NCBI RefSeq assembly: GCF_019464535.1
Contig: NZ_CP080507.1
Location: 330,001 to 362,000, forward strand
Reading direction: 5' to 3'
From: Horticoccus luteus
GTDB lineage: Bacteria > Verrucomicrobiota > Verrucomicrobiia > Opitutales > Opitutaceae
DNA: 32,000 nucleotides
Shown: piece by piece, positions 1-9,570 of the stretch
Position numbering within the stretch: the first letter of the stretch is position 1
How the letters are laid out: each line of letters opens with the position of its first letter
Translations under genes and position numbers: made by a program
Notes under the pieces: model-generated
Seen by the model: the letters and a program-made list of their open reading frames with translations, nothing else
Databases searched by the model: none
What the model was told of the DNA's origin: nothing

Positions 1-507
1 CATGGCTTTGATCGAGGTGGAGACGAAGACTCCGAGGCTTTTCAGCAGGAAGCGCACGGAGTTGATGAGGTTGACACGGCTGCGCACAAGGGCCTCGCGG
101 ACTTTGAGCCGCACGAGGGCGCGTTGCGTGTCCTCGCTGCGGTGGCGGACCGGGCTGAGCAGCTGCGGGTCGGCGCGGCCCAGGCGCGCGAGCATCCGCG
201 CGTCCTCGCGGTCGGACTTGGTCTGGCTTTGCGAGATGGCGCGCAGCTTGCGGGCGTTGGCGACGATGACGGGGTGGCCGAGTGTGGTGACGAGACGCGA
301 GATCCACGGGCTGTGCGTGCCGGTCTCCATCACGATGGTCGCGCCCGGGTAGCGGGCGCTGAACGCGGTCAGCACTTCGCGGGTGTTGACGATCACTTCC
401 TCGGCGAGGATCTCGCCCGAGGCATCGAGGACGCACGCGTGGTGGCGGCGGTCCCCGAGGTCCAAGCCAACGGTTAGTTTTTCAACAGGAGGGGTTTTGG
501 TTTTCAT
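1..507 (-). CDS. IS110-family (DEDD/RuvC-like) transposase, N-terminal part; gene runs off left edge
   Basis: Own translation of the minus strand from ATG at 507-505: MKTKTPPVEKLTVGLDLGDRRHHACVLDASGEILAEEVIVNTREVLTAFSARYPGATIVMETGTHSPWI... The GLDLGD..CVLD and VMETGTH motifs are typical of the IS110/IS1111 N-terminal domain. The ORF is absent from the supplied track because it has no stop inside the window. Confidence 0.75.
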   Translation of the reverse strand, partial: MKTKTPPVEKLTVGLDLGDRRHHACVLDASGEILAEEVIVNTREVLTAFSARYPGATIVMETGTHSPWISRLVTTLGHPVIVANARKLRAISQSQTKSDREDARMLARLGRADPQLLSPVRHRSEDTQRALVRLKVREALVRSRVNLINSVRFLLKSLGVFVSTSIKAM

Positions 508-545
508 ACGGCGGGAGATTATACACCCGCCTTCTCATCCCTACT

Positions 546-559
546 GGTTGAACCAAGCC
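546..559. repeat. Left inverted repeat of module A, GGTTGAACCAAGCC
   Basis: Its reverse complement matches 2970-2982 (GGCTTGTTCAACC) at 13 of 14 positions. It lies 3 bp inside the left repeat boundary. Confidence 0.7.
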
Positions 560-654
560 GCTGCGCGGCGGGGGTGAGCGGGTGTATATAGTGCGGGGCG
601 GGGCACGAGCGGAAGGATGGGCGGGAGGGCGGTGGCTGGCAAGGCTGCGGGTCT

Positions 655-1620
655 ATGCCCAAATCAAAATCGACGGGAAGAGAGTCCACGCACGCGTCCA
701 CGCTGCGGGGTGGCGCCAGGAAGATCGCGGCACCGGATCCGGAGTCGGTGCAGCGTTTCGCGGAGACGATGCGGCTGCGTTCGCTGGCGGCAGCGACGCA
801 GGCCGAGTATCTGCGGTTTGTCCGCAAGTTGGCGACGCGCCACGGGGGCGATCCGGCCGCGCTCGATGAGGCCGCGGTCCGCGCGCATCTGCTGCGGTTG
901 AAGGACGAACACCACTACTCGCCCTCGTCGATGCGAACCGCGGTGGCGGCGATGCGGGCCTACTTCGGCCTGCACCTCGGGCGCGACTGGAAGCTGTTCG
1001 ATCTGGTGCGTTCGCCCTCGGCGCAAAAGCTGCCGACGGTGCTCACGCGCGCAGAGGTGGCGCGGCTGTTCGCGGTGGTGCGCGAGTTGCGTTTCCGCAC
1101 ACTGCTGCGGTTGATCTACGCGTGCGGATTGCGCATCGGCGAGGCGGTCAACCTGGAGGTGCGCGATCTGCGCGAAGCGGGTCGCGTGCATATCCGCGAG
1201 GCGAAGGGCAACAAGGAGCGCTACGTGCCGCTGCCGGAGGCGATGTTGCACGAGTTGCGCGCGTTCTGGCGGACGCACCGGCATCCGCGGTGGATTTTCC
1301 CGGGGGTCGGCCGCGGCTGGCGCGAGCAACCGGCGCGCGCGGCGCAACTGGCCGCCGCCGTCGAGCCGCTGGGCGTGGGCTCGGTGCAGCATTGCCTGCG
1401 GCTGGCGCGGGCCGAGGCGCGGCTGCCGGCGGGCACGGTGGTGCATACGCTGCGGCATTCGTATGCGACGCATCTGCTCGAGGAGGGCGTGTCGATCCGG
1501 CTGATCTCGGCGTATCTGGGGCACGCTTCGCTGGAGACGACGCTGATCTATACGCATCTGACGGCGGTCAACGAGAGCCACGCTCGCGCGGCGGTCGCGC
1601 GGTTGCTCGAACCACGCTGA
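655..1620 (+). CDS. Tyrosine recombinase / phage-integrase-family protein (321 aa)
   Basis: ATG-started ORF. Catalytic-type motifs are present: ACGLRIGEA (Arg), [10 protein letters not shown] (Lys), [15 protein letters not shown] (HxxR), [15 protein letters not shown] (His..Tyr). An N-terminal SAM-like core-binding pattern is also present. Confidence 0.9.
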
Positions 1621-1623
1621 CCG

Positions 1624-2703
1624 GTGCCGGTCCTCGCCGACTGGCTGGCGCGCGTCCGCGTGCCGGAGCGTTGCGCGCCGCGGGCGCGGCGCGCGCTCGC
1701 AGCGATCCGCCGCTGCCGCACGCCCGCCTTGGGCGGGCATGTGTATCGCTGCACGGATTGCGCGGGCACGGACTTCGCGTATCACAGCTGCCACCACCGC
1801 GCGTGTCCGCGCTGCGGCGGCGAGCGCACCGCGGCGTGGACGGCGCAGCAGGAGGCGCGGCTGCTGCCGGTGCCGTATTTTTTGGTGACGTTCACCGTGC
1901 CGGAGGAACTGCGCGCGGTCTTCGCCGCCGAGCCGGCGTTGATGCACGACCGGCTCTTCCGCGAGAGCGCGGCGACGTTGCAACAAGTCGCGGCGGAGCG
2001 GCGGTTGCTCGGTGCGGAACTCGGCTTCGTCGGCGTGCTGCACACCTGGGGCCGGCAGCTCCAGCATCATCCGCACGTGCATTATATCGTGCCCGGCGGC
2101 GGGCTCAGCCCCGACGGCAAAAAATGGTTGAACGCGCGGCAACGCGACTGGCTGCTGCCGGTGGCGAAGCTGGCGGCGGTGTTTCGCGGGCGGATGGAGG
2201 CGGTGCTGCGCGCGAGCGCTACGGCGCGGCACGCTTCGATTCCGGCCGGCACGTGGCGGAGCCGTTGGGTCGTGCATTGCCAGTCGGCCGGCAGGGGCGA
2301 GGCGGTCGTGCGCTATCTCGCGCGCTACGTCAGCCGCACGGCGATCAGCGACGAGCGCCTCGTCGCCGCCGACGACGAGCGCGTGGTGTTTAACTATACC
2401 GATGCGAAGACCCAGCAGCGGCGGCAGTGCACGCTCGGCGCGGAAGAGTTCCTGCGGCGGTATTTGCAGCACGTGCCGCCGGCCGGCCAGCATCGCGTGC
2501 GTTACTTCGGCTGGTTGCACCCGGCGGCGCACGCCCGCCGGATGACGGTGGAGACGCTGCTGCAAAAGCCGATCGTGCTCGCGGCGCCGCCGCCGGAGGC
2601 GCCGCGCTGGCACTTGCGTTGTCCGCACTGCGAACGGTTCACGCTCGTGCGCGTGGGCACGCTGCCGCGGCAGGCGCGCGCGCCGCCCCTTTGCCAGCGA
2701 TGA
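1624..2703 (+). CDS. IS91-family transposase (Zn-binding N-terminus + Y2 HUH rolling-circle domain, 359 aa)
   Basis: GTG start lies 3 nt after the recombinase stop. The Cys/His cluster CTDCAG..HSCHHRACPRCG marks the transposase zinc-binding domain. HHPHVHYIVPGGG is an HUH motif and VRYLARYVSR is a YxxxY motif. Confidence 0.9.
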   Translation: MPVLADWLARVRVPERCAPRARRALAAIRRCRTPALGGHVYRCTDCAGTDFAYHSCHHRACPRCGGERTAAWTAQQEARLLPVPYFLVTFTVPEELRAVFAAEPALMHDRLFRESAATLQQVAAERRLLGAELGFVGVLHTWGRQLQHHPHVHYIVPGGGLSPDGKKWLNARQRDWLLPVAKLAAVFRGRMEAVLRASATARHASIPAGTWRSRWVVHCQSAGRGEAVVRYLARYVSRTAISDERLVAADDERVVFNYTDAKTQQRRQCTLGAEEFLRRYLQHVPPAGQHRVRYFGWLHPAAHARRMTVETLLQKPIVLAAPPPEAPRWHLRCPHCERFTLVRVGTLPRQARAPPLCQR

Positions 2704-2969
2704 GTATAAAGATCAGGGACCAACTTATTATATTATTGCGACTCGCTCCCCGTGTCGCCGGCGGAAGCCTTGGTCGCGACGGACGCAAGACGGCTCGCGA
2801 GCCCGGTGACGGGCGGCGGACACCCTCTCGGCGGGCGAAAACGGACGCCGCCGGCACGTGCGCCCGCGACCGGCGAAGGATGCCGCCGTCCGGCGCTCCG
2901 CCCATCGGCGGTGGGCGGCCACTACAAAACGCATAAGCGGCGGTCGGAACCGCGGACGCCTTCGAAACG

Positions 2970-2982
2970 GGCTTGTTCAACC
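2970..2982. repeat. Right inverted repeat of module A, GGCTTGTTCAACC
   Basis: Partner of 546-559. It lies 41 bp inside the right repeat boundary, so placement is asymmetric relative to the left end. Confidence 0.7.
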
Positions 2983-2990
2983 CGCGTCCC

Positions 2991-3010
2991 GCTGCGCGCT
3001 ACGGCGCAGC
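2991..3010. repeat. Perfect 7-bp stem / 6-nt loop hairpin GCTGCGC-GCTACG-GCGCAGC in the distal right end of module A
   Basis: Direct inspection. The hairpin is identical in module B at 5830-5849. Confidence 0.8.
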
Positions 3011-3023
3011 AGAACGCTCAGAG

Positions 3024-3314
3024 TTAGCCCTTTGGTTCATTTTCGATTTTCATCCGAAAATACAAGCGACGCGTGAACGATACGATTGCATCGAAGAAGA
3101 GTCCGACAACCAAACATTCAGTGGCGAGCAACAAGATAACGACTGCAGCATTCATGTCGTGCGGATTCCCGCTCACCGCGATGCCTGCTTCGATAGGAAG
3201 AATGACAGGATACTGATACCAATGAATCGTCGGACTATTCTTGGGCACGACGGCCGCACAATAACCGAAGAACACAAGAGCGCCGGCTATGACAGTGAGG
3301 ATGTGCCTCGTCAT
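3024..3314 (-). CDS. Hypothetical small membrane protein (about 96 aa, two predicted TM helices) in a low-GC islet
   Basis: Internal ATG at 3314 of track ORF 3024-3395; the longer form would start inside module B. Hydrophobic stretches are ILTVIAGALVFFGYCAAVV and AAVVILLLATECLVVGLFF. Local GC is about 47% against about 66% in the surroundings. The TAA stop is exactly adjacent to the module A boundary. Confidence 0.4.
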   Translation of the reverse strand: MTRHILTVIAGALVFFGYCAAVVPKNSPTIHWYQYPVILPIEAGIAVSGNPHDMNAAVVILLLATECLVVGLFFDAIVSFTRRLYFRMKIENEPKG

Positions 3315-3348
3315 TCTGGAGCTCGTTTTTTGGCTAACGTTTGAGATC

Positions 3349-3375
3349 AGCCACGGGCGCTTGGGCCCGTTGGCT
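3349..3375. repeat. Hairpin with 10-bp stem and one extrahelical T (AGCCACGGGC / GCCCG-T-TGGCT)
   Basis: Direct base-pair check: 3349-3358 pairs with 3365-3375, T3370 is bulged, and the loop is 3359-3364. It sits between the left end of module B and the small ORF start. Confidence 0.6.
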
Positions 3376-3493
3376 GTAGCGACTGGTTGAACCAAGCCGC
3401 TGCGCGGCGGGGGTGGGCGGGTGTATATAGTGCGGGGCGGGGCACGGGCGGAAGGATGGGCGGGAGGGCGGTGGCTGGCAAGGCTGCGGGTCT

Positions 3494-4459
3494 ATGCCCA
3501 AATCAAAATCGACGGGAAGAGAGTCCACGCACGCGTCCACGCTCCGGGGTGGCGCCAGGAAGATCGCCGCGCCCGATCCGGAGTCGGTGCAGCGTTTCGC
3601 GGAGACGATGCGGCTGCGTTCGCTGGCGGCGGCGACGCAGGCCGAGTATCTGCGGTTTGTCCGCCAGTTGGCGGCGCGCTGCGGCGGCGATCCGGCCGCG
3701 CTCGATGAGGCCGCGGTCCGCGCGCATCTGCTGCGGTTGAAGGACGAACACCACTACTCGCCTTCGTCGATGCGAACCGCAGTGGCGGCGATGCGGGCCT
3801 ACTTCGGCGTGCACCTCGGGCGCGACTGGAAGCTGTTCGATCTGGTGCGTTCGCCCTCGGCGCAAAAGCTGCCGACGGTGCTCACGCGCGCAGAGGTGGC
3901 GCGGCTGTTCGCGGTGGTGCGGGTGCCGCGGTTCCGCACACTGCTGCGGTTGATCTACGCGTGCGGATTGCGCATCGGCGAGGCGGTCAACCTGGAGGTG
4001 CGCGATCTGCGCGAAGCGGGTCGCGTGCATATCCGCGAGGCGAAGGGCAACAAGGAGCGCTACGTGCCGCTGCCGGAGGCGATGTTGCACGAGTTGCGCG
4101 CGTTCTGGCGGACGCACCGGCATCCGCGGTGGATTTTCCCGGGGGTCGGCCGCGGCTGGCGCGAGCAACCGGCGCGCGGGGCGCACCTGGCCGCCGCCGT
4201 CGAGCCGCTGGGCGTGGGCTCGGTGCAGCATTGCCTGCGGCTGGCGCGGACCGAGGCGCGGCTGCCGGCGGGCACGGTGGTGCATACGCTGCGGCATTCG
4301 TATGCGACGCATCTGCTCGAGGAGGGCGTGTCGATCCGGCTGATCTCGGCGTATCTGGGGCACGCTTCGCTGGAGACGACGTTGATCTATACGCATCTGA
4401 CGGCGGTCAACGAGAGCCACGCCCGCGCGGCGGTCGCGCGGTTGCTCGAACCACGCTGA
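3494..4459 (+). CDS. Tyrosine recombinase (copy B, 321 aa)
   Basis: About 9 amino-acid differences from 655-1620. All catalytic motifs are retained. Confidence 0.9.
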
Positions 4460-4462
4460 CCG

Positions 4463-5542
4463 GTGTCGGTGCTCGCCGACTGGCTGGCGCGCGCCCGCGT
4501 GCCGGAGCATTGCGCGCCGCGGGCGCGGCGCGCGCTCGCAGCGATCCGCTGCTGCCGCACGCCCGCCTTGGGCGGGCACGTGTATCGCTGCACGGAGTGC
4601 GCGGGCACGGACTTCGCGTATCACAGTTGTCACCATCGCGCTTGCCCGCGCTGCGGCGGCGAGCGCACCGCGGCGTGGACGGAGCGGCAGGAGGCGCGGC
4701 TGCTGCCGGTGCCGTATTTCCTGGTGACGTTCACCGTGCCGCAGGAACTGCGCGCGGTCTTCGCCGCCGAGCCGGCGTTGATGCACGACCGGCTCTTCCG
4801 CGAGAGCGCGGCGACGTTGCAACAAGTCGCGGCGGAGCGGCGGTTGCTCGGTGCGGAACTCGGCTTCGTCGGCGTGCTGCACACCTGGGGCCGGCAGCTC
4901 CAGCATCATCCGCACGTGCATTATATCGTGCCCGGCGGCGGGCTCAGCGCCGACGGCAAAAAATGGGTGAACGCGCGGCAACGCGACTGGCTGCTGCCGG
5001 TGGCGAAGCTGGCGGCAGTGTTTCGCGGGCGGATGGAGGCGGTGCTGCGCGCGAGCGCTCCGGCGCGGCACGCTTCGATTCCGGCCGGCACGTGGCGGAG
5101 CCGTTGGGTCGTGCACTGCCAGCCGGCCGGCAGCGGCGAGGCGGTCGTGCGCTATCTCGCGCGCTACGTCAGCCGCACTGCGATCAGCGACGAGCGCCTC
5201 GTCGTCGCCGATGACGAACGCGTGGTGTTTAACTATACCGACACGAAGACGCAGCAGCGGCGGCAGTGCACGCTCGGCGCGGAAGAGTTCCTGCGGCGGT
5301 ATTTGCAGCACGTGCCGCCGGCCGGCCAGCATCGCGTGCGTTACTTCGGCTGGCTGCACCCGGCGGCGCACGCCCGCCGGATGACGGTGGAGACGCTGCT
5401 GCAAAAGCCGATCGTGCTCGCGGCGCCGCCGCCGGAGGCGCCGCGCTGGCACTTGCGCTGCCCGCACTGCGAACGGTTCACGCTCGTGCGCGTGGGCACG
5501 CTGCCGCGGCAGGCGCGCGCGCCGCCCCTTTGCCAGCGATGA
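4463..5542 (+). CDS. IS91-family transposase (copy B, 359 aa)
   Basis: About 15 amino-acid differences from 1624-2703. Zn-binding, HUH and YxxxY motifs are retained. Confidence 0.9.
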   Translation: MSVLADWLARARVPEHCAPRARRALAAIRCCRTPALGGHVYRCTECAGTDFAYHSCHHRACPRCGGERTAAWTERQEARLLPVPYFLVTFTVPQELRAVFAAEPALMHDRLFRESAATLQQVAAERRLLGAELGFVGVLHTWGRQLQHHPHVHYIVPGGGLSADGKKWVNARQRDWLLPVAKLAAVFRGRMEAVLRASAPARHASIPAGTWRSRWVVHCQPAGSGEAVVRYLARYVSRTAISDERLVVADDERVVFNYTDTKTQQRRQCTLGAEEFLRRYLQHVPPAGQHRVRYFGWLHPAAHARRMTVETLLQKPIVLAAPPPEAPRWHLRCPHCERFTLVRVGTLPRQARAPPLCQR

Positions 5543-5837
5543 GTATAAAGATCAGGGACCAACTTATTATATTATTGCGGCCCGCGCCCCGTGCCGCCGG
5601 CGGCAGCCTTGGCCGCGACCGACGCAAGACGGCTCGCGCCCCCGGTGACGGGTGGCGGACTCCCTCTCGGCGGGCGAAAACGGACGCTACCGGCACGTGC
5701 GCCCGCGACCGGCGAAGGATGCCGCCGTCCGGCGCTCCGCCCATCGGCGGTCGGAGGCCACTACAAAACGCATAAGCGGCGGACGGAACCGCGGACGCCT
5801 TCGAAACGGGCTTGTTCAACCCGCGTCCCGCTGCGCG

Positions 5838-6110
5838 CTACGGCGCAGCAGAACGCTCAGAGATCGGCTCTTTCTGGGACGCGCGCAATAGAACGACGCG
5901 CTTTTCATCGGTCGCCGAAAGGCGGCCATAATCTACGTCGATCATGATCCCACGACAGGAACAACGGGCACTTTCTTTCGGGTGCGATTCGAGCACCTCG
6001 CCGCACGAGGGACACTGATAGTAAAGGTCCGCACCGGTAGGCCATCCCTTCGAGCAATCAAAGGGCACGACTTTACTGGCGAACCGGGAGTTGAACTCAG
6101 AAGCCGTCAT
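5838..6110 (-). CDS. Hypothetical small protein (90 aa) with Cys-rich zinc-ribbon-like pattern
   Basis: ATG start at 6110. The pattern CPSCGEVLESHPKESARCSC is present. Local GC is about 53%. The last 8 codons and the TAG stop lie inside the distal hairpin segment of module B. Confidence 0.45.
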   Translation of the reverse strand: MTASEFNSRFASKVVPFDCSKGWPTGADLYYQCPSCGEVLESHPKESARCSCRGIMIDVDYGRLSATDEKRVVLLRASQKEPISERSAAP

Positions 6111-6216
6111 TTCTTCCGCCGATCAGTGTTATTCGCCCATACTCAGTGTGGCAATGCCAGAACTGAACGAGAGCGGGGGTTGCAGTTGAGGTGGGGAACG
6201 GAAACTCGGTTAGCCG

Positions 6217-7692
6217 TTGTGTCGTCGTGGTTTGGTTTCATGCGACGGCGGTCGGTCGGCGGCGAAACCTTGGGAATCGGATTGCTCGGGGCCGCGCAAA
6301 AGCCACACTGGCAGTATGGCTTTAGCAGGCGAGCGCACAGAGCAAAATCTGGACGAAATCGTGTCATTTCCGGAGTGGCGCGAAGTGTTGAACGGGGCGA
6401 GCGCATGGTCGGCGGAAGTGAAGCAGGCGCATGTCAGGGCAATTTTAGGGTTGTTGCGAGCTTGCAAATCCACGGGCCGGCCGCTGTCGGCGGGTTTCAT
6501 CCGCTGGCATCTGGCGCGTGCTGGTTTGACGGAGAACGCGCGGCGGGCCGAGCGCGCGGCGTTCGCCTGGCTCTTCAAGGCGGCCAGAGCGGCGGGCAAG
6601 ACGCGCCCGGCGGCGCGCGGGTTTGGGGAGCCCGAGGTCGGGGCGCAACGGCCGGCGGATAACCCGCGGCGGTCGGGGCCGGGAGCGGGGGCGGGAGCGA
6701 GGCCGGCCGTGCCGCCGCTGGCGGCGGCGGATCAGGGCGGAGCGGAGTGGGAGCGCGCGTTGATCACGGCCATCCGGCGCAAGGGATTTTTGTGGCGCAC
6801 GGAGCAGACGTATCGGGCATGGGCGGCGCGGTTCGCGCGGTTCCTGGCGCCGCGCTCGCCCGAGGCGGCCTCCGGGGACGATGTGGCGGCGTTTCTCTCC
6901 GCGCTGGCCGTCGAGCAGCGCGCAGCGCCGTCCACGCAGAAGCAGGCGCTCAATGCGCTGGTGTTCTTCATGCAGGAAGCGTTGCGGATGGATCTGGGTG
7001 AAATGGATTTTCGGCGCGCGCGCGCTCGCGAGAGAATACCGACCGTGTTGAGCAAGGCGGAGGTGCGGCAGGTGCTGGAGCAACTGCCGGGCGGCTACCG
7101 ACTGATGGCGGAGGTGATGTATGGGAGCGGGCTGCGGTTGATGGAACTGCTGCGGCTGCGCGTGCACCACCTGGATCTGGCGCGCGGGCAATTGAACGTT
7201 TACGGCGGGAAAGGCGACAAGGACCGGCTGACGGTGCTGCCGGAATCGCTGCGGGAAAAACTGGAGGCTCATCTGGCCCGACTGCGGGAGATTTTCGCGC
7301 AGGACCGGGCGGCGGACGCGCCGGGAGTGTGGTTGCCGGAAGGGCTGGCCCGGAAATATCCCAAGGCGGGGGTGACGTGGGAGTGGCAGTGGTTGTGGCC
7401 GTCGCGCGAATTCATGCAGGACCCGGAGACGGGGCGGCGGCGGCGACATCATATCCTCGACGGGACGTTCCAGAATGCGGTGCGCAAGGCGGCGGGCGCG
7501 GCGGGGATGACGAAACGCGTGACGCCGCATGTGCTGCGGCACTCGTTTGCGACGCATCTGCTGGAGGCGGGCACCGATATCCGGACGGTGCAGGAACTAC
7601 TGGGCCACCAGAGCGTGGAGACGACGCAGATCTATACGCATGTGATGCAGAAGCCGGGGCTGGGCGTGCGGAGTCCGCTGGATGCGGGGTGA
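6217..7692 (+). CDS. intI: Integron-type integrase (IntI family) with long N-terminal extension; start uncertain (TTG 6217, ATG 6316 or GTG 6709)
   Basis: The C-terminal 320 aa align by eye to IntI1, including the IntI-specific insertion. Compare LPEGLARKYPKAGVTWEWQWLWPSREFMQDPETGRRRRHHILDGTFQNAVRKAAGAAGMTKRVTPHVLRHSFATHLL with IntI1 [70 protein letters not shown]. This is followed by DIRTVQELLGHQSVETTQIYTHV..GVRSPLD. Confidence 0.85.
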   Translation: MCRRGLVSCDGGRSAAKPWESDCSGPRKSHTGSMALAGERTEQNLDEIVSFPEWREVLNGASAWSAEVKQAHVRAILGLLRACKSTGRPLSAGFIRWHLARAGLTENARRAERAAFAWLFKAARAAGKTRPAARGFGEPEVGAQRPADNPRRSGPGAGAGARPAVPPLAAADQGGAEWERALITAIRRKGFLWRTEQTYRAWAARFARFLAPRSPEAASGDDVAAFLSALAVEQRAAPSTQKQALNALVFFMQEALRMDLGEMDFRRARARERIPTVLSKAEVRQVLEQLPGGYRLMAEVMYGSGLRLMELLRLRVHHLDLARGQLNVYGGKGDKDRLTVLPESLREKLEAHLARLREIFAQDRAADAPGVWLPEGLARKYPKAGVTWEWQWLWPSREFMQDPETGRRRRHHILDGTFQNAVRKAAGAAGMTKRVTPHVLRHSFATHLLEAGTDIRTVQELLGHQSVETTQIYTHVMQKPGLGVRSPLDAG

Positions 7693-7708
7693 AGGGGTGC
7701 GGGCGGGC

Positions 7709-7796
7709 GGACGGCGGCGGAGGACGGACGGCGGACGGCGGAGGACGGACGGCGGAGGACGGACGGCGGACGGCGGAGGACGGAGGACGGAGGAGG
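7709..7796. repeat. Degenerate heptanucleotide tandem repeat (GRCGGAS, about 12-13 units), G-rich on + strand
   Basis: Direct inspection of GGACGGC GGCGGAG GACGGAC GGCGGAC GGCGGAG ... It begins 17 bp after the intI stop. Confidence 0.8.
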
Positions 7797-7827
7797 GAAA
7801 CCTGAAGGAGCAGAGGGGGGCGCGAAA

Positions 7828-7859
7828 GGATGCCGGGTGAGGGCACCCGGCCCACAGGG
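7828..7859. repeat. REP-like unit GGATG(C/T)CGGGTGAGGGCACCCGGCCCACAGGG containing a CCGGGTG-AGGG-CACCCGG hairpin
   Basis: A 32-bp direct repeat with 7984-8015, one mismatch. Related units occur at 10901-10917 and 10947-10963. Confidence 0.8.
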
Positions 7860-7983
7860 ATGAGGTGAAGCGCGGAGGCGTTCCGCAACGGGACGAGCGG
7901 GCGGATTAGGCGATCGTTCTCGTTATCTTAATCTTTCTCGGGTTGGCGAGCGGAAGGGCGAGAGGGCGGAGAACACTGCGGTC

Positions 7984-8015
7984 GGATGTCGGGTGAGGGC
8001 ACCCGGCCCACAGGG
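7984..8015. repeat. REP-like unit, second direct copy
   Basis: See 7828-7859. Confidence 0.8.
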
Positions 8016-8037
8016 CGGGACGGACGGGCGCGAGAAC

Positions 8038-8061
8038 GATTACGATTATGATTACGATTAC
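8038..8061. repeat. Hexanucleotide tandem repeat GATTAC x4 (one unit GATTAT)
   Basis: Direct inspection. It is part of the low-GC CGAGAACGATTACG... repeat family. Confidence 0.8.
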
Positions 8062-8091
8062 GAAAATGGGGGAAATTTTGGTGGAGTCCTC

Positions 8092-9570
8092 TTACGCGGA
8101 GAGGTGGTGGCTGAGTTCTGATACGGGCATCGGTTCGAGTTGATGGGGGGCGTTGAATAGAGTGGCGAGGAGCGTGGCCTTCTCCGAGCTGTAGTGAGCA
8201 GTGAAGGCGGCGGCGGCTTTTTGCTGAAGGAGCGGGATGCCGTCTTTCCTCCGGCGGCGGTGGCCGATCGGGAAGTGCACTTCGATGCGGTCGGTGGCGG
8301 TGCCGTCGGTGAAGAAGATTTGGACGGCGTTGGCGATGGAGCGTTGCCCGGCGTCGAGGTAGTCGCGGCTGTAGGTTTTCTCTTCGCGCACAACCATCTT
8401 CGCGCGGAGGGCATCGATGCGGGGATCGGCGGCGATTTTGTCTTCGTAATGTTCGGCGGTGAGGTCGCCGAACAGGAGGCCGATGGCGGTCATATATTGC
8501 AGGCAGTGATCGCGGTCGGCGGGATTGTGGAGCGGGCCGGTTTTATCGATGATGCGGATGGCGGACTCGTGGGTGGTGAGTTCGATGCGGGCGATGTCGG
8601 CAAGGCGGTCGCGGACGAGCGGGTGGAGTTGCACGGCGCATTCGACGGCGGTCTGGGCGTGGAATTCGGCGGGGAAGGAGATTTTGAAGAGGACATTTTC
8701 CATCACATAGCTGCCGAGCGGGCGGGCGAGTTTGACGGGTTGGCCGCGGAAGGAGACATCTTGGAAGCCCCAGGTTTTGGCGGTGAGGACGGAGGGGTAG
8801 CCCATCTCGCCAGTGAGGGCGATGAGGGCGAGGCGGACGGCGCGGCTGGTGGCATCGCCGGCGGCCCAGGATTTACGGGAGCCGGTGTTGGGCGCGTGGC
8901 GGTAGGTGCGGAGGGCGGAGCCATCGAGCCACGCGTGGGAGAGGGCGTTGACGATTTGGTCGCGGGTGCCGCCGAGCATGGCGGTGGTGACGGCGGTGGA
9001 GGCGATGCGGACGAGGAGGACGTGATCGAGGCCGACGCGGTTGAAGGAGTTTTCGAGGGCGAGGATGCCTTGGATTTCGTGGGCCTTGATCATCGCGACG
9101 AGGAGGTCGCGGACGGTGAGGGAGGAAGGACGAATGGCGGATGACGAATTGAAGGCGCGGACGGGCGTGCCGGCGGCGGCGTTGCGCGAGAGCCAGTCGG
9201 CGGTGGCGAGAAGGGCGCCGAGGTTGTCGGAGGGATGACCCCATTCGGCGGCGAGCCAGGTGTCGTTGAAATCGAGCCAGCGGACGAGGGTGCCGATGTT
9301 GAAGGCGGCTTGCACAGGATCGAGCTCGTAGGGCGTGCCGGGGACGCGGGCGCCGTTGGCGATGGTGGTGCCGGGGACGACGGGGCCGAGGAGTTTCGTG
9401 CAGGCGGGATATTTCAGCGCCATGATGCCGCAGGCGAGGGTGTCGAGGAGGCACCAGCGGGCGGTGTCGAGCGCCTCGGCGGAGGGCGCGTTGTAGTGAA
9501 GCGCGTAGTCGGCGAGGGTGACCAGGAGGTCGTCGGGCGGCGGGCGGAGGTTGGAAATGGGAGAGGACAT
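8092..9570 (-). CDS. prpD: 2-methylcitrate dehydratase (MmgE/PrpD family)
   Basis: About 492 aa from the internal ATG at 9570 (MSSPISNL..). Length and sequence are typical of PrpD. The longer track ORF (to 9651, TTG) would start inside an intergenic palindrome. Confidence 0.85.

Follow-up and report, generated by a model that had tools for sequence, protein, structure and literature searches.

An IS91-family element with an IntI-like recombinase and an attC-like end, inserted in the R″ box of integron attC sites in Horticoccus luteus and related genomes

Two kinds of mobile element are known to home to the attC sites of integron cassettes. IS1111-attC elements, such as ISPa21 and ISPst6, target attC near its 5′ end and lie antisense to the cassettes (PMC3001079), and they encode a DEDD transposase with RNA-guided targeting (PMC11187229). 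Group IIC-attC introns target the folded attC opposite to cassette transcription and can block Pc-driven expression from the first cassette (PMC3001079). The IS91 family is known for insertion without target duplication, with the target tetranucleotide beside oriIS, which has one or two palindromes and lies downstream of tnpA, and with a terIS end that closes on a similar tetranucleotide preceded by one palindrome; it is a bottom-strand single-stranded circle that inserts (PMC13181058). It is already known that the second open reading frame (ORF) of some IS91 members belongs to the phage-integrase family (Siguier et al. 2014, cited in PMC8496243), and that IS91-borne recombinases are the closest homologues of the integron integrase IntI, with which they group as an “integron-like” subgroup without its extra helices (Smyshlyaev et al., bioRxiv 10.1101/542381). 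Here we analyze a 32,000-nucleotide stretch of the Horticoccus luteus genome (contig NZ_CP080507.1, positions 330,001 to 362,000; hereafter the window, whose numbering is used throughout), which holds two copies of an element of this integrase-bearing IS91 subgroup, both inserted in integron attC sites. The element would be a third kind of attC-homing element with a different strategy, in which an attC look-alike of its own and an IntI-like recombinase would make use of the box and the strand that IntI ignores. In the literature that was searched, which did not extend to ISfinder or TnPedia, we found no description of an IS91 element that targets attC, of an attC-like site in one, or of the ends and targets of the integrase-bearing subgroup.

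The two copies were recognized as modules at 543-3023 and 3382-5862 (offset 2839), which differ at 75 of 2481 positions (97.0% identity) and whose similarity breaks off exactly at 543 and at 3023. They are two copies of a 2,476-bp IS91-family element in which an IntI-like tyrosine recombinase is encoded upstream of a Y2 transposase. Copy 1 runs on the plus strand from TTGAAC to CTCAGAG (548-3023) and copy 2 occupies 3387-5862, with its recombinase gene at 3494-4459, its transposase gene at 4463-5542, its right inverted repeat at 5809-5821 and its hairpin segment at 5822-5862. These bounds rest on the comparison of 15 complete copies, and of about 90 ends, from other genomes and metagenomes. 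One genome per species was scanned for related loci, which gave 78 loci, mostly in metagenome-assembled genomes of Opitutaceae and without the source genome among them, and the hairpin, searched for by exact match in metagenomes, turned up at 54 further sites. We think it somewhat probable that this is an IS91-family element with an attC-like site of its own, which is inserted in the R″ box of host attCs through an integron-style exchange carried out by its own recombinase.

An earlier note on this DNA, made from the letters of the window, had reported terminal inverted repeats of 13/14 bp, 41 bp of identity beyond the right repeat with a perfect hairpin in it, small ORFs that end at this segment (TAA at 3026-3024, TAG at 5840-5838) and a 10-bp direct repeat, all of which were confirmed in place. 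Its view that the termini mimic integron core sites also holds, and the boundary of the element falls exactly at G/TT (within sequences, a slash marks the crossover point). The terminal sequences GGTTGAACCAAGCC (546-559) and GGCTTGTTCAACC (2970-2982) are complementary save for one bulged C. Because this 66% GC DNA holds 345 pairs of imperfect inverted repeats of at least 12 nt in 2.6 kb, the window by itself does not make the terminal repeats significant; their significance comes from about 90 copies elsewhere in which they are conserved. TTGAAC opens the conserved left end, and the left repeat (547-559; TTGAACNAAGCCGCTGCGCGGCG is kept in all left ends) contains an R′-like box, G/TTGAAC (547-553), with the crossover at 547/548. 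The five nucleotides before TTGAAC vary by locus (NCTGG, CCTTG, CGCGG and others), so that ACTGG at 543-547, which recurs at 3382-3386, is host DNA and not part of the element; it forms the last 5 nt of a host attC arm before the crossover. Just inside the left end, a small hairpin, GCCGC-TGC-GCGGC (557-569), is identical in nearly all Opitutaceae-type copies and has a close variant in Acidobacteria. It is a candidate for the subterminal palindrome that the terIS ends of the IS91 family bear (PMC13181058).

At the right end, the repeat GGGCTTGTTCAAC (2970-2982, with an R″-like box, GTTCAAC, at 2975-2981) is invariant in 36 distinct genome copies and is followed in them by a homologue of the 41-bp segment (2983-3023), and the flanks diverge straight after the final G. 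In the metagenomes, the right repeat lies upstream of the hairpin at 47 of the 54 sites, the remainder having a slightly altered or partial repeat or the end of another element, and no hairpin independent of the element was found among the 54, all of which are joined to a truncated module or to at least the TTCAACC of the right repeat. The two copies in the window show 0 differences over 2969-3023. The segment folds into stem 1 (2984-2987 with 3014-3017) and stem 2 (2991-2997 with 3004-3010, within the hairpin GCTGCGC-GCTACG-GCGCAGC at 2991-3010), followed by a 5-nt unpaired tail, TCAGA, and the crossover G at 3023. In the stem alignment 95.4% of cells are paired and compensatory changes occur in 8 of 12 pairs; there are 83 double-change cells against 24 in shuffles, and the observed score was reached by 0 of 500 shuffles. 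The covarying stem variants include CTGCGC with GCGCAG, ATTCGC with GCGAAT, TGGCGC with GCGCCA and TGTGTCG with CGACACA, as well as GCGT with ACGC, GGGT with ACCC and GAGT with ACTC. Since the hairpin is found with the element in each context examined and has covarying stems, with flanks that diverge past the last G, the 41 bp are the element's own end and its folded site. The unoccupied attCs of the same arrays contain nothing like them.

Further ideas about the ends were examined and set aside. The 10-bp direct repeat CCGCTGCGCG, at 558-567 and 2989-2998 and again in copy 2 (4 matches in the window vs 1.2 expected), had been put forward in the earlier note as a possible recombinase crossover core. 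It is not conserved, and in other subfamilies the stem to which its right-hand copy belongs covaries freely. Nor do the 41 bp and the left flank make up the two halves of a single attC, since both are complete hairpins and the 41 bp are absent from free attCs. Copies truncated at the 5′ end were considered as a sign of premature rolling-circle termination and proved uninformative, their left breakpoints being heterogeneous and often abutting the end of another element.

Solo hairpins without an element body were seen in L128 (about 2580-2640, minus strand), L123 and L127 (L numbers denote loci of the two samples). In one example the host attC reads ...GTAGCGTCTGG/TTG-TTCAACC-hairpin-CAGAG/TTAGCC, with a deletion from the TTG of the left end to the TTG within the right repeat; such hairpins could be miniature derivatives or excision scars. 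The motif (A or G)CCTGACCC(C or T)(A or T)T abuts many of the 5′-truncated copies (L050 at about 5975-5998, L062 at about 5965-5999, L065 at about 5970-6000, L071 at about 3865-3886, L075 at about 1745-1774, and L059), is preceded by AACCCCAAACCCCAAGG in L059 and L075, and abuts the hairpin itself in the metagenome contigs L093, L118 and L130. It probably marks the end of another insertion sequence, one with repeated insertions in this element. Inside the transposase gene, GGTTGAAC (2126-2133) resembles the terminal R′-like box, and in L032 (5976-6002) the right repeat and the first hairpin bases are fused to the transposase gene exactly at this point, which suggests occasional recombination at a pseudo-site.

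Head-to-tail junctions of the element are present in L014 and L031, both assembled contigs in which tandem copies and circles look alike. The joined ends read GGGCTTG-GTTCAAC-C-(stem 1, 3x3 loop, stem 2, loop)-TCAGA-G/TTGAAC-CAAGCC, and the terminal “inverted repeats” turn out to be an R box in two halves (RYYYAAC and GTTRRRY), which pair around the stem-loop only in the circular or tandem form. As with the R boxes of attC, which are complementary in the circular unit and have their crossover at G/TT, GTTCAAC (2975-2981) is brought opposite G/TTGAAC (547-553). The joined site has a folding energy of -22.0 kcal/mol (z -4.9) on the plus strand and of -26.1 kcal/mol (z -5.9) on the minus strand. 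On the plus strand there are two conserved CxA mismatches, which on the minus strand become G.T pairs and make the stem continuous, and 92% of cells are pairable on the minus strand vs 86.5% on the plus strand. A count of wobble pairs at first favored the plus strand; with the two conserved CxA positions included, it favors the minus strand. On moderate evidence, the antisense (minus) strand is probably the one that folds, as in integron cassettes and IS91, and on this strand the crossover reads 5′-GTTCAA/C, with the same AA/C as in integrons. The stems are interrupted by the 3x3 loop and the unpaired bases lie on the cleaved arm (a 5-nt tail vs 1 nt); the site has neither extrahelical bases on an R″-L″ arm nor a roughly symmetric unpaired central spacer, as an attC stem would. 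Since its geometry differs and the local attC model described below does not score it, the element site is an attC mimic and not an attC.

The target was defined from the host attCs themselves. A covariance model, R1, was built from 13 free attCs of these arrays and matched the window at 3332-3393 only (44 bits, E 5e-13). This match, together with a profile match, marks the attC of cassette 1 (3332-3386, its bottom strand read on the plus strand), in which the R′ box GGCTAAC (3343-3349) is followed by the L stems with an extrahelical T on the 3′ arm. The R″ box of this attC is split by element copy 2, its remainder being ATCGGC at 5863-5868, and the right-hand host remainder at copy 1 is TTAGCC. 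In most loci the left flank on the plus strand is a typical attC, with GCCTAAC, GGCTAAC or GCCCATC followed by GTTTGAG, ATCAGCCAC, a variable hairpin, GTTGGCTGT, RGCG and NCTGG/. A survey with a profile and then with a covariance model made from unoccupied sites gave 61 complete attCs in 55 loci, all on the strand of the element genes, of which 17 are occupied by the element and 44 are free. Free attCs read ...NCTGG/TTCGCC, /ATCGGC, /TTGGCC or /TTAGCC (in general ...NCTGG/TTNGSC), which is the left flank of an occupied site joined to its right flank, and insertion is therefore precise, between G and TT or AT, and without target duplication. In the metagenomes, 46 of 52 right flanks fit [AT]TNG[CG][CT].

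In attC, the extrahelical bases lie on the R″-L″ arm, and R″ is the box that adjoins the cassette's own ORF (Bouvier et al., PMC2727003). IntI canonically crosses over at R′ and uses the bottom strand, which is preferred about 10^4-fold, and a crossover in R″ marks top-strand recombination (PMC2727003). In the arrays studied here, the bulged T (plus strand) is on the arm beside the right-hand box, next to the insertion. Given the minus-strand cassette ORFs, the divergent intI gene and this bulged T, the occupied box is R″ by these definitions. In every attC case the element is inverted relative to the cassettes, rather than co-oriented with them and placed at R′ as a cassette would be. The partner sites have only 1-3 nucleotides in common (G, TT), which fits a single-strand exchange rather than the classical 6-8-bp overlap. 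The suggestion in the earlier note of site-specific insertion into attC is borne out insofar as the elements do target attCs; the attC in question is the DNA outside both junctions, not the 41-bp segment. A reading of the module and the host attC as one top-strand cassette, with the 41 bp as the attC of its neighbor, was rejected, as it is the hairpin and not the host attC that travels with the module. Mapping of cassette boundaries by neighbor comparison was unusable, the flanks of window copy 2, L001 and L032 sharing only about 12 nt.

The recombinase of copy 1 (655-1620, plus strand) has Phage_integrase and SAM_4 domains, and its best NCBIfam match is TIGR02249, in two stretches and with 160 bits where the cutoff is 265. 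Aligned with the IntI encoded in the window it shows 32% identity, with gaps where IntI has its extra helices (KYPxAxxxWxWQW region). As judged from its sequence it belongs to the integron-like subgroup without the IntI-specific insertion, and neither by score nor by helices is it an IntI. The transposase (1624-2703, plus strand) matches NF033538 at 368 bits (cutoff 125), as well as Y2_Tnp (PF04986) and Zn_Tnp_IS91 (PF14319), and its HPH (residue 149) and YLARY (residue 231) motifs are intact in both copies. It has the HUH motif, the two catalytic tyrosines and the zinc-binding N-terminal domain of the IS91 family; exact-protein look-ups with both transposase copies returned nothing on record. 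The element also agrees with this family in the lack of a duplication and in its distinct ter-like and ori-like ends, an invariant 13-nt palindrome on the left and a two-stem hairpin on the right. With the recombinase gene immediately upstream, a Y2 HUH transposase with a zinc-binding N-terminus, subterminal palindromes at distinct ends and site-specific insertion, it resembles the integrase-bearing IS91 subgroup and is a member of it by its proteins. Unlike classical IS91, it has attC-like ends, a G/TT boundary and the R″ box of attCs as its target. The classical rule of a CTTG or GTTC target abutting oriIS, both with T at position 2, does not describe this boundary, which on the antisense strand is YNAA/C. 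Inside the element there is a GTYN tetranucleotide 8 nt from the right end and CTTG-GTTC 2-3 nt from the left end, and the relics described below fit cutting at these points.

The same terminal design occurs in relatives in Acidobacteria, whose transposases are 40-45% and recombinases 31-34% identical to those of the element. Their left end begins with G/TTTGAACTAAGCCGCTGGCGCGGCGG, and their right end reads GGCTCAGTTCAAA-C-GACCCTATCG-AAA-CTGCCCCG-(about 35 variable nt)-CGGGGCAG-TCC-CGATAGGGNC-CTAAC-G/TTT. They have in common with the element the R boxes, the 1-nt and 5-nt spacers, two stems, a variable tip and a G/TT(T) crossover, and their stems are split by an internal loop that is G.T-paired on the antisense strand, as in the Opitutaceae-type site. 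A copy on a Sphingobium plasmid has the same layout, with terminal repeats and then an external hairpin. The targets in Acidobacteria are not attC arrays and read ...GCG/TTTNNCGGTAC. Since the site design is the same without attC arrays, the site travels or co-evolves with the element's own proteins and not with the host IntI, and it is the Opitutaceae lineage that has specialized on integron attCs. Target preference is also seen within the Acidobacteria loci (L036-L060, for example L040 at 4927 and 7439), where the left flanks end in ...(A or C)AGCGCG/ or ...GGGCG/ and the right flanks begin with TTTNNCGGTAC(T or C).

The cutting enzyme, the reacting strand and the division of labor between the two enzymes may be as follows. 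The recombinase of the element would exchange a single strand between the folded element site and the host attC (top strand), cutting AA/C on the strand antisense to the element genes. This would be the mirror image of the action of IntI at R′ on the bottom strand, and the junction would then be resolved by replication. The Y2 transposase would most likely supply single-stranded circles by rolling-circle replication from the hairpin (oriIS-like) end, for which the candidate circle junctions are CTCAGAG/TTGAAC for the whole unit and ...GGCTTGGTTC/TGCTGCGCC on the antisense strand for an IS91-type core. The element's own recombinase is favored for the exchange because the crossover is that of integrons, only 1-3 nt are shared and the R boxes form only when the ends are joined. 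It is also favored because the recombinase is among the closest homologues of IntI and the design persists where no integron is present.

Several points weigh against this proposal. The assignment of the reaction to the recombinase rather than to the Y2 transposase is drawn from sequence comparison, and IS91-family elements likewise insert without duplication beside a short motif and have subterminal palindromes at both ends (PMC13181058). The I2 helix is tied to single-strand recombination in the literature (PMC7790495), and the element recombinase is without it; this enzyme may instead read the attC arm as ordinary double-stranded sequence. The element site is unlike a canonical attC in its asymmetric spacers (1 nt vs 5 nt) and its lack of single-base extrahelical nucleotides. 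The local model R1 also failed to match the site in either copy (2969-3029 and 5808-5868), on both strands and with E values of up to 10 allowed. Wobble pairs allow a modest inference on the strand, with one edge pair favoring the plus strand, and a minority of copies lie outside recognizable attCs (L026, L013, L016, L052 and L072). In Acidobacteria, no hairpin is evident in the reconstructed empty site, the targets sharing ...GCG...G/TT. Finally, a 14-nt relic, TTGAAC+NCTCAGAG (the first 6 and last 8 nt of the element), directly follows a full element in three independent contigs (L008 at 7389-7402, L104 just after 6458 and L108 just after 655), and a 10-nt variant, AT+GCTCAGAG, occurs in L121. 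Such relics are possible IS91-type donor joints at internal GTTC sites, and would amount to a second, nested pair of breakpoints. Loss of the core between the two GAAC sites (GTTC/ on the antisense strand) would be expected to leave just this 14-nt relic.

The main rival is an insertion of the pure IS91 type, which we consider somewhat unlikely. The Y2 HUH transposase alone would cut the antisense strand after a short motif, at YNAA/C in the R″ box of attC and at TCAA/C in the terIS-like left end, and would paste a single-stranded circle into the single-stranded attC. The recombinase would then be an accessory that may resolve tandem or multimeric copies, or control termination like Orf121 in IS91. 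The layout of the element is that of the family: its upstream end bears the palindrome GCCGCTGCGCGGC, and the two-stem hairpin lies downstream of the transposase gene. CTTG and GTTC both lie within the terminal repeats, an antisense GTYN tetranucleotide precedes the hairpin in 36 of 36 copies, the recurrence of the 14-nt relics fits a donor joint at GTTC sites, and tandem copies exist as possible substrates for a resolvase. However, the true unit boundary, G/TT or AA/C according to strand, is the canonical integron crossover and does not come after a motif of the CTTG or GTTC type. Every copy carries the 8 nt that lie beyond the internal GTYN, and this tail covaries with the stem, so that the moving unit is not a GTTC-bounded core. 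A 4-nt motif also cannot account for the near-exclusive use of one attC box, and transposition by the Y2 enzyme alone leaves no role for 13-bp terminal repeats that form an R box only when joined.

That same boundary, with G/TT on both sides of the unit, would also suit a giant cassette in which the hairpin is the attC, the host IntI (6316-7692) mobilizes the module and the module's own enzymes are cargo. The folded site lies 3′ of the genes, the element is found in arrays beside intI in four genomes, and it is able to use its own site as a target, as happens in recombination between two attCs. We regard such a cassette as improbable, because the element is always in R″ and inverted, against the preference of IntI for R′ (PMC2727003), and 17 of the 61 attCs are occupied in this non-canonical way. 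Its site also departs from the host attCs in geometry and gets no score from the model built on them, and relatives in Acidobacteria have the same terminal design outside attC arrays. The proposal of the earlier note, that the 13/14-bp repeats are the true ends of the element and the 41 bp are conserved target DNA of an attC-like kind, had in its favor that identity reaches 41 bp past the right repeat and only 3-5 bp past the left one, and that the small ORFs end at the segment. It is almost certainly wrong: the hairpin follows every other copy of the module regardless of context, the finding that the note itself had named as a refutation, and covaries with it, unoccupied attCs are without the segment, body-less hairpins keep TTCAACC, and the host-attC model gives it no score.

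The element resembles integron attCs and cassettes in its AAC and GTT R boxes that pair in the circle, its imperfect stem with a variable tip, its G/TT crossover, its presence in arrays beside intI and its ability to insert into its own site. It differs from cassettes in that the crossover is in R″ of the host and not in R′, in its inverted orientation, in its 1-nt vs 5-nt spacers and in carrying its own recombinase and transposase. Specific insertion into attC, near the 5′ end and antisense to the cassettes, is shared with both known kinds of attC-homing element. IS1111-attC elements have no attC-like site and use a DEDD transposase, whereas the element has a Y2 transposase and a tyrosine recombinase. 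It is also unlike the group IIC-attC introns, which consist of a ribozyme and a reverse transcriptase, insert into the bottom strand and have neither a recombinase nor a hairpin mimic. The module encodes neither a DEDD transposase nor a group II intron RNA with reverse transcriptase.

The element offers a concrete, testable role for the second ORF of the integrase-bearing IS91 subgroup. Recombinases most closely related to IntI are, in at least three phyla, tied to folded sites that share its AAC and GTT crossover. We tentatively propose, while holding it doubtful, that the I2-less, IntI-like recombinases of IS91 may recombine folded single-stranded hairpins with R boxes and a G/TT crossover, in a polarity opposite to that of IntI. 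If this is true, hairpin recombination would not be an integron invention; the two systems would share an ancestor or one would derive from the other, and the Opitutaceae lineage would have turned the relationship into parasitism of integron arrays. An insertion that splits the first attCs and faces against Pc should freeze and silence the downstream cassettes. Tools for integron annotation will take the ends of the element for odd attC sites.

The integron that hosts the two copies lies directly downstream of them. The ORF at 6316-7692 (plus strand) matches TIGR02249 at 382.5 bits (cutoff 265) and PRK15417 at 286 bits, is divergent from the attC array, and is a bona fide integron integrase. 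Since it is an integrase gene divergent from the small minus-strand ORFs, these ORFs are the first two cassettes of its array. The earlier note had likened them to cassettes without recognizing the integrase, and with it they can be taken as true cassettes. IntI homologues on the same strand downstream of the element are also present in L001, L010 and L065. The presumed attI and promoter region (6141-6315) is placed by its position between the divergent intI gene and the first cassette, and GCCCATAC at 6133-6140 is similar to R-box variants of the arrays. Cassette 1, the first after attI (5863-6140, minus strand), contains an ORF from 6110 to 5838 with a weak DUF7695 match, and its flank ATCGGCTCTTTC matches R″-side flanks at other loci. 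Cassette 2 (3024-3331, minus strand) contains an ORF for a small membrane protein from 3314 to 3024, on the strand used in related arrays. The long ORFs of those arrays are all on the minus strand, and each starts at an attC edge that is left-hand in plus-strand coordinates, is preceded by a purine-rich ribosome-binding stretch and ends in or near the right-hand box. IntI can probably no longer excise the cassettes in the usual manner, both attCs being split. The last 8 codons and the stop of the cassette-1 protein are now supplied by the element hairpin (5838-5862), and the stop TAA of cassette 2 sits within its R″ box, GGCTAA/C. The insertion therefore swaps out the natural C-terminus of cassette 1 and leaves the TAA of cassette 2 in R″ intact (3024-3029). 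A scan of positions 1-9000 of the window matched no Rfam family.

An IS110-family element fragment at 1-542 (minus strand), which encodes a transposase N-terminus with its ATG at 507 (Pfam DEDD_Tnp_IS110 and NCBIfam NF033542), is a separate element in the neighboring attC. Its end at 542/543 lies within the spacer of the host attC of copy 1 (cassette 2), 5 nt from the module junction, and two unrelated mobile elements have thus struck one attC. Only 36 nt separate the transposase ATG from the end of the element, so that any guide RNA must be downstream, in an IS1111-like layout. The N-terminus of IntI (6316-6860) has an extension of about 150 residues ahead of the SAM-like domain, including a Gly/Pro/Ala-rich linker, and the IntI homologue of L065 aligns from residue 42, so that the extension is conserved there at least. 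Just downstream of intI (7700-7800) lies a G-rich tract of GGACGGCGGAGGACGGAC-type repeats with spacings of 14 and 21 nt, and beyond it a 32-nt sequence, GGATGYCGGGTGAGGGCACCCGGCCCACAGGG, occurs in two copies (7828-7859 and 7984-8015) that are 156 nt apart.

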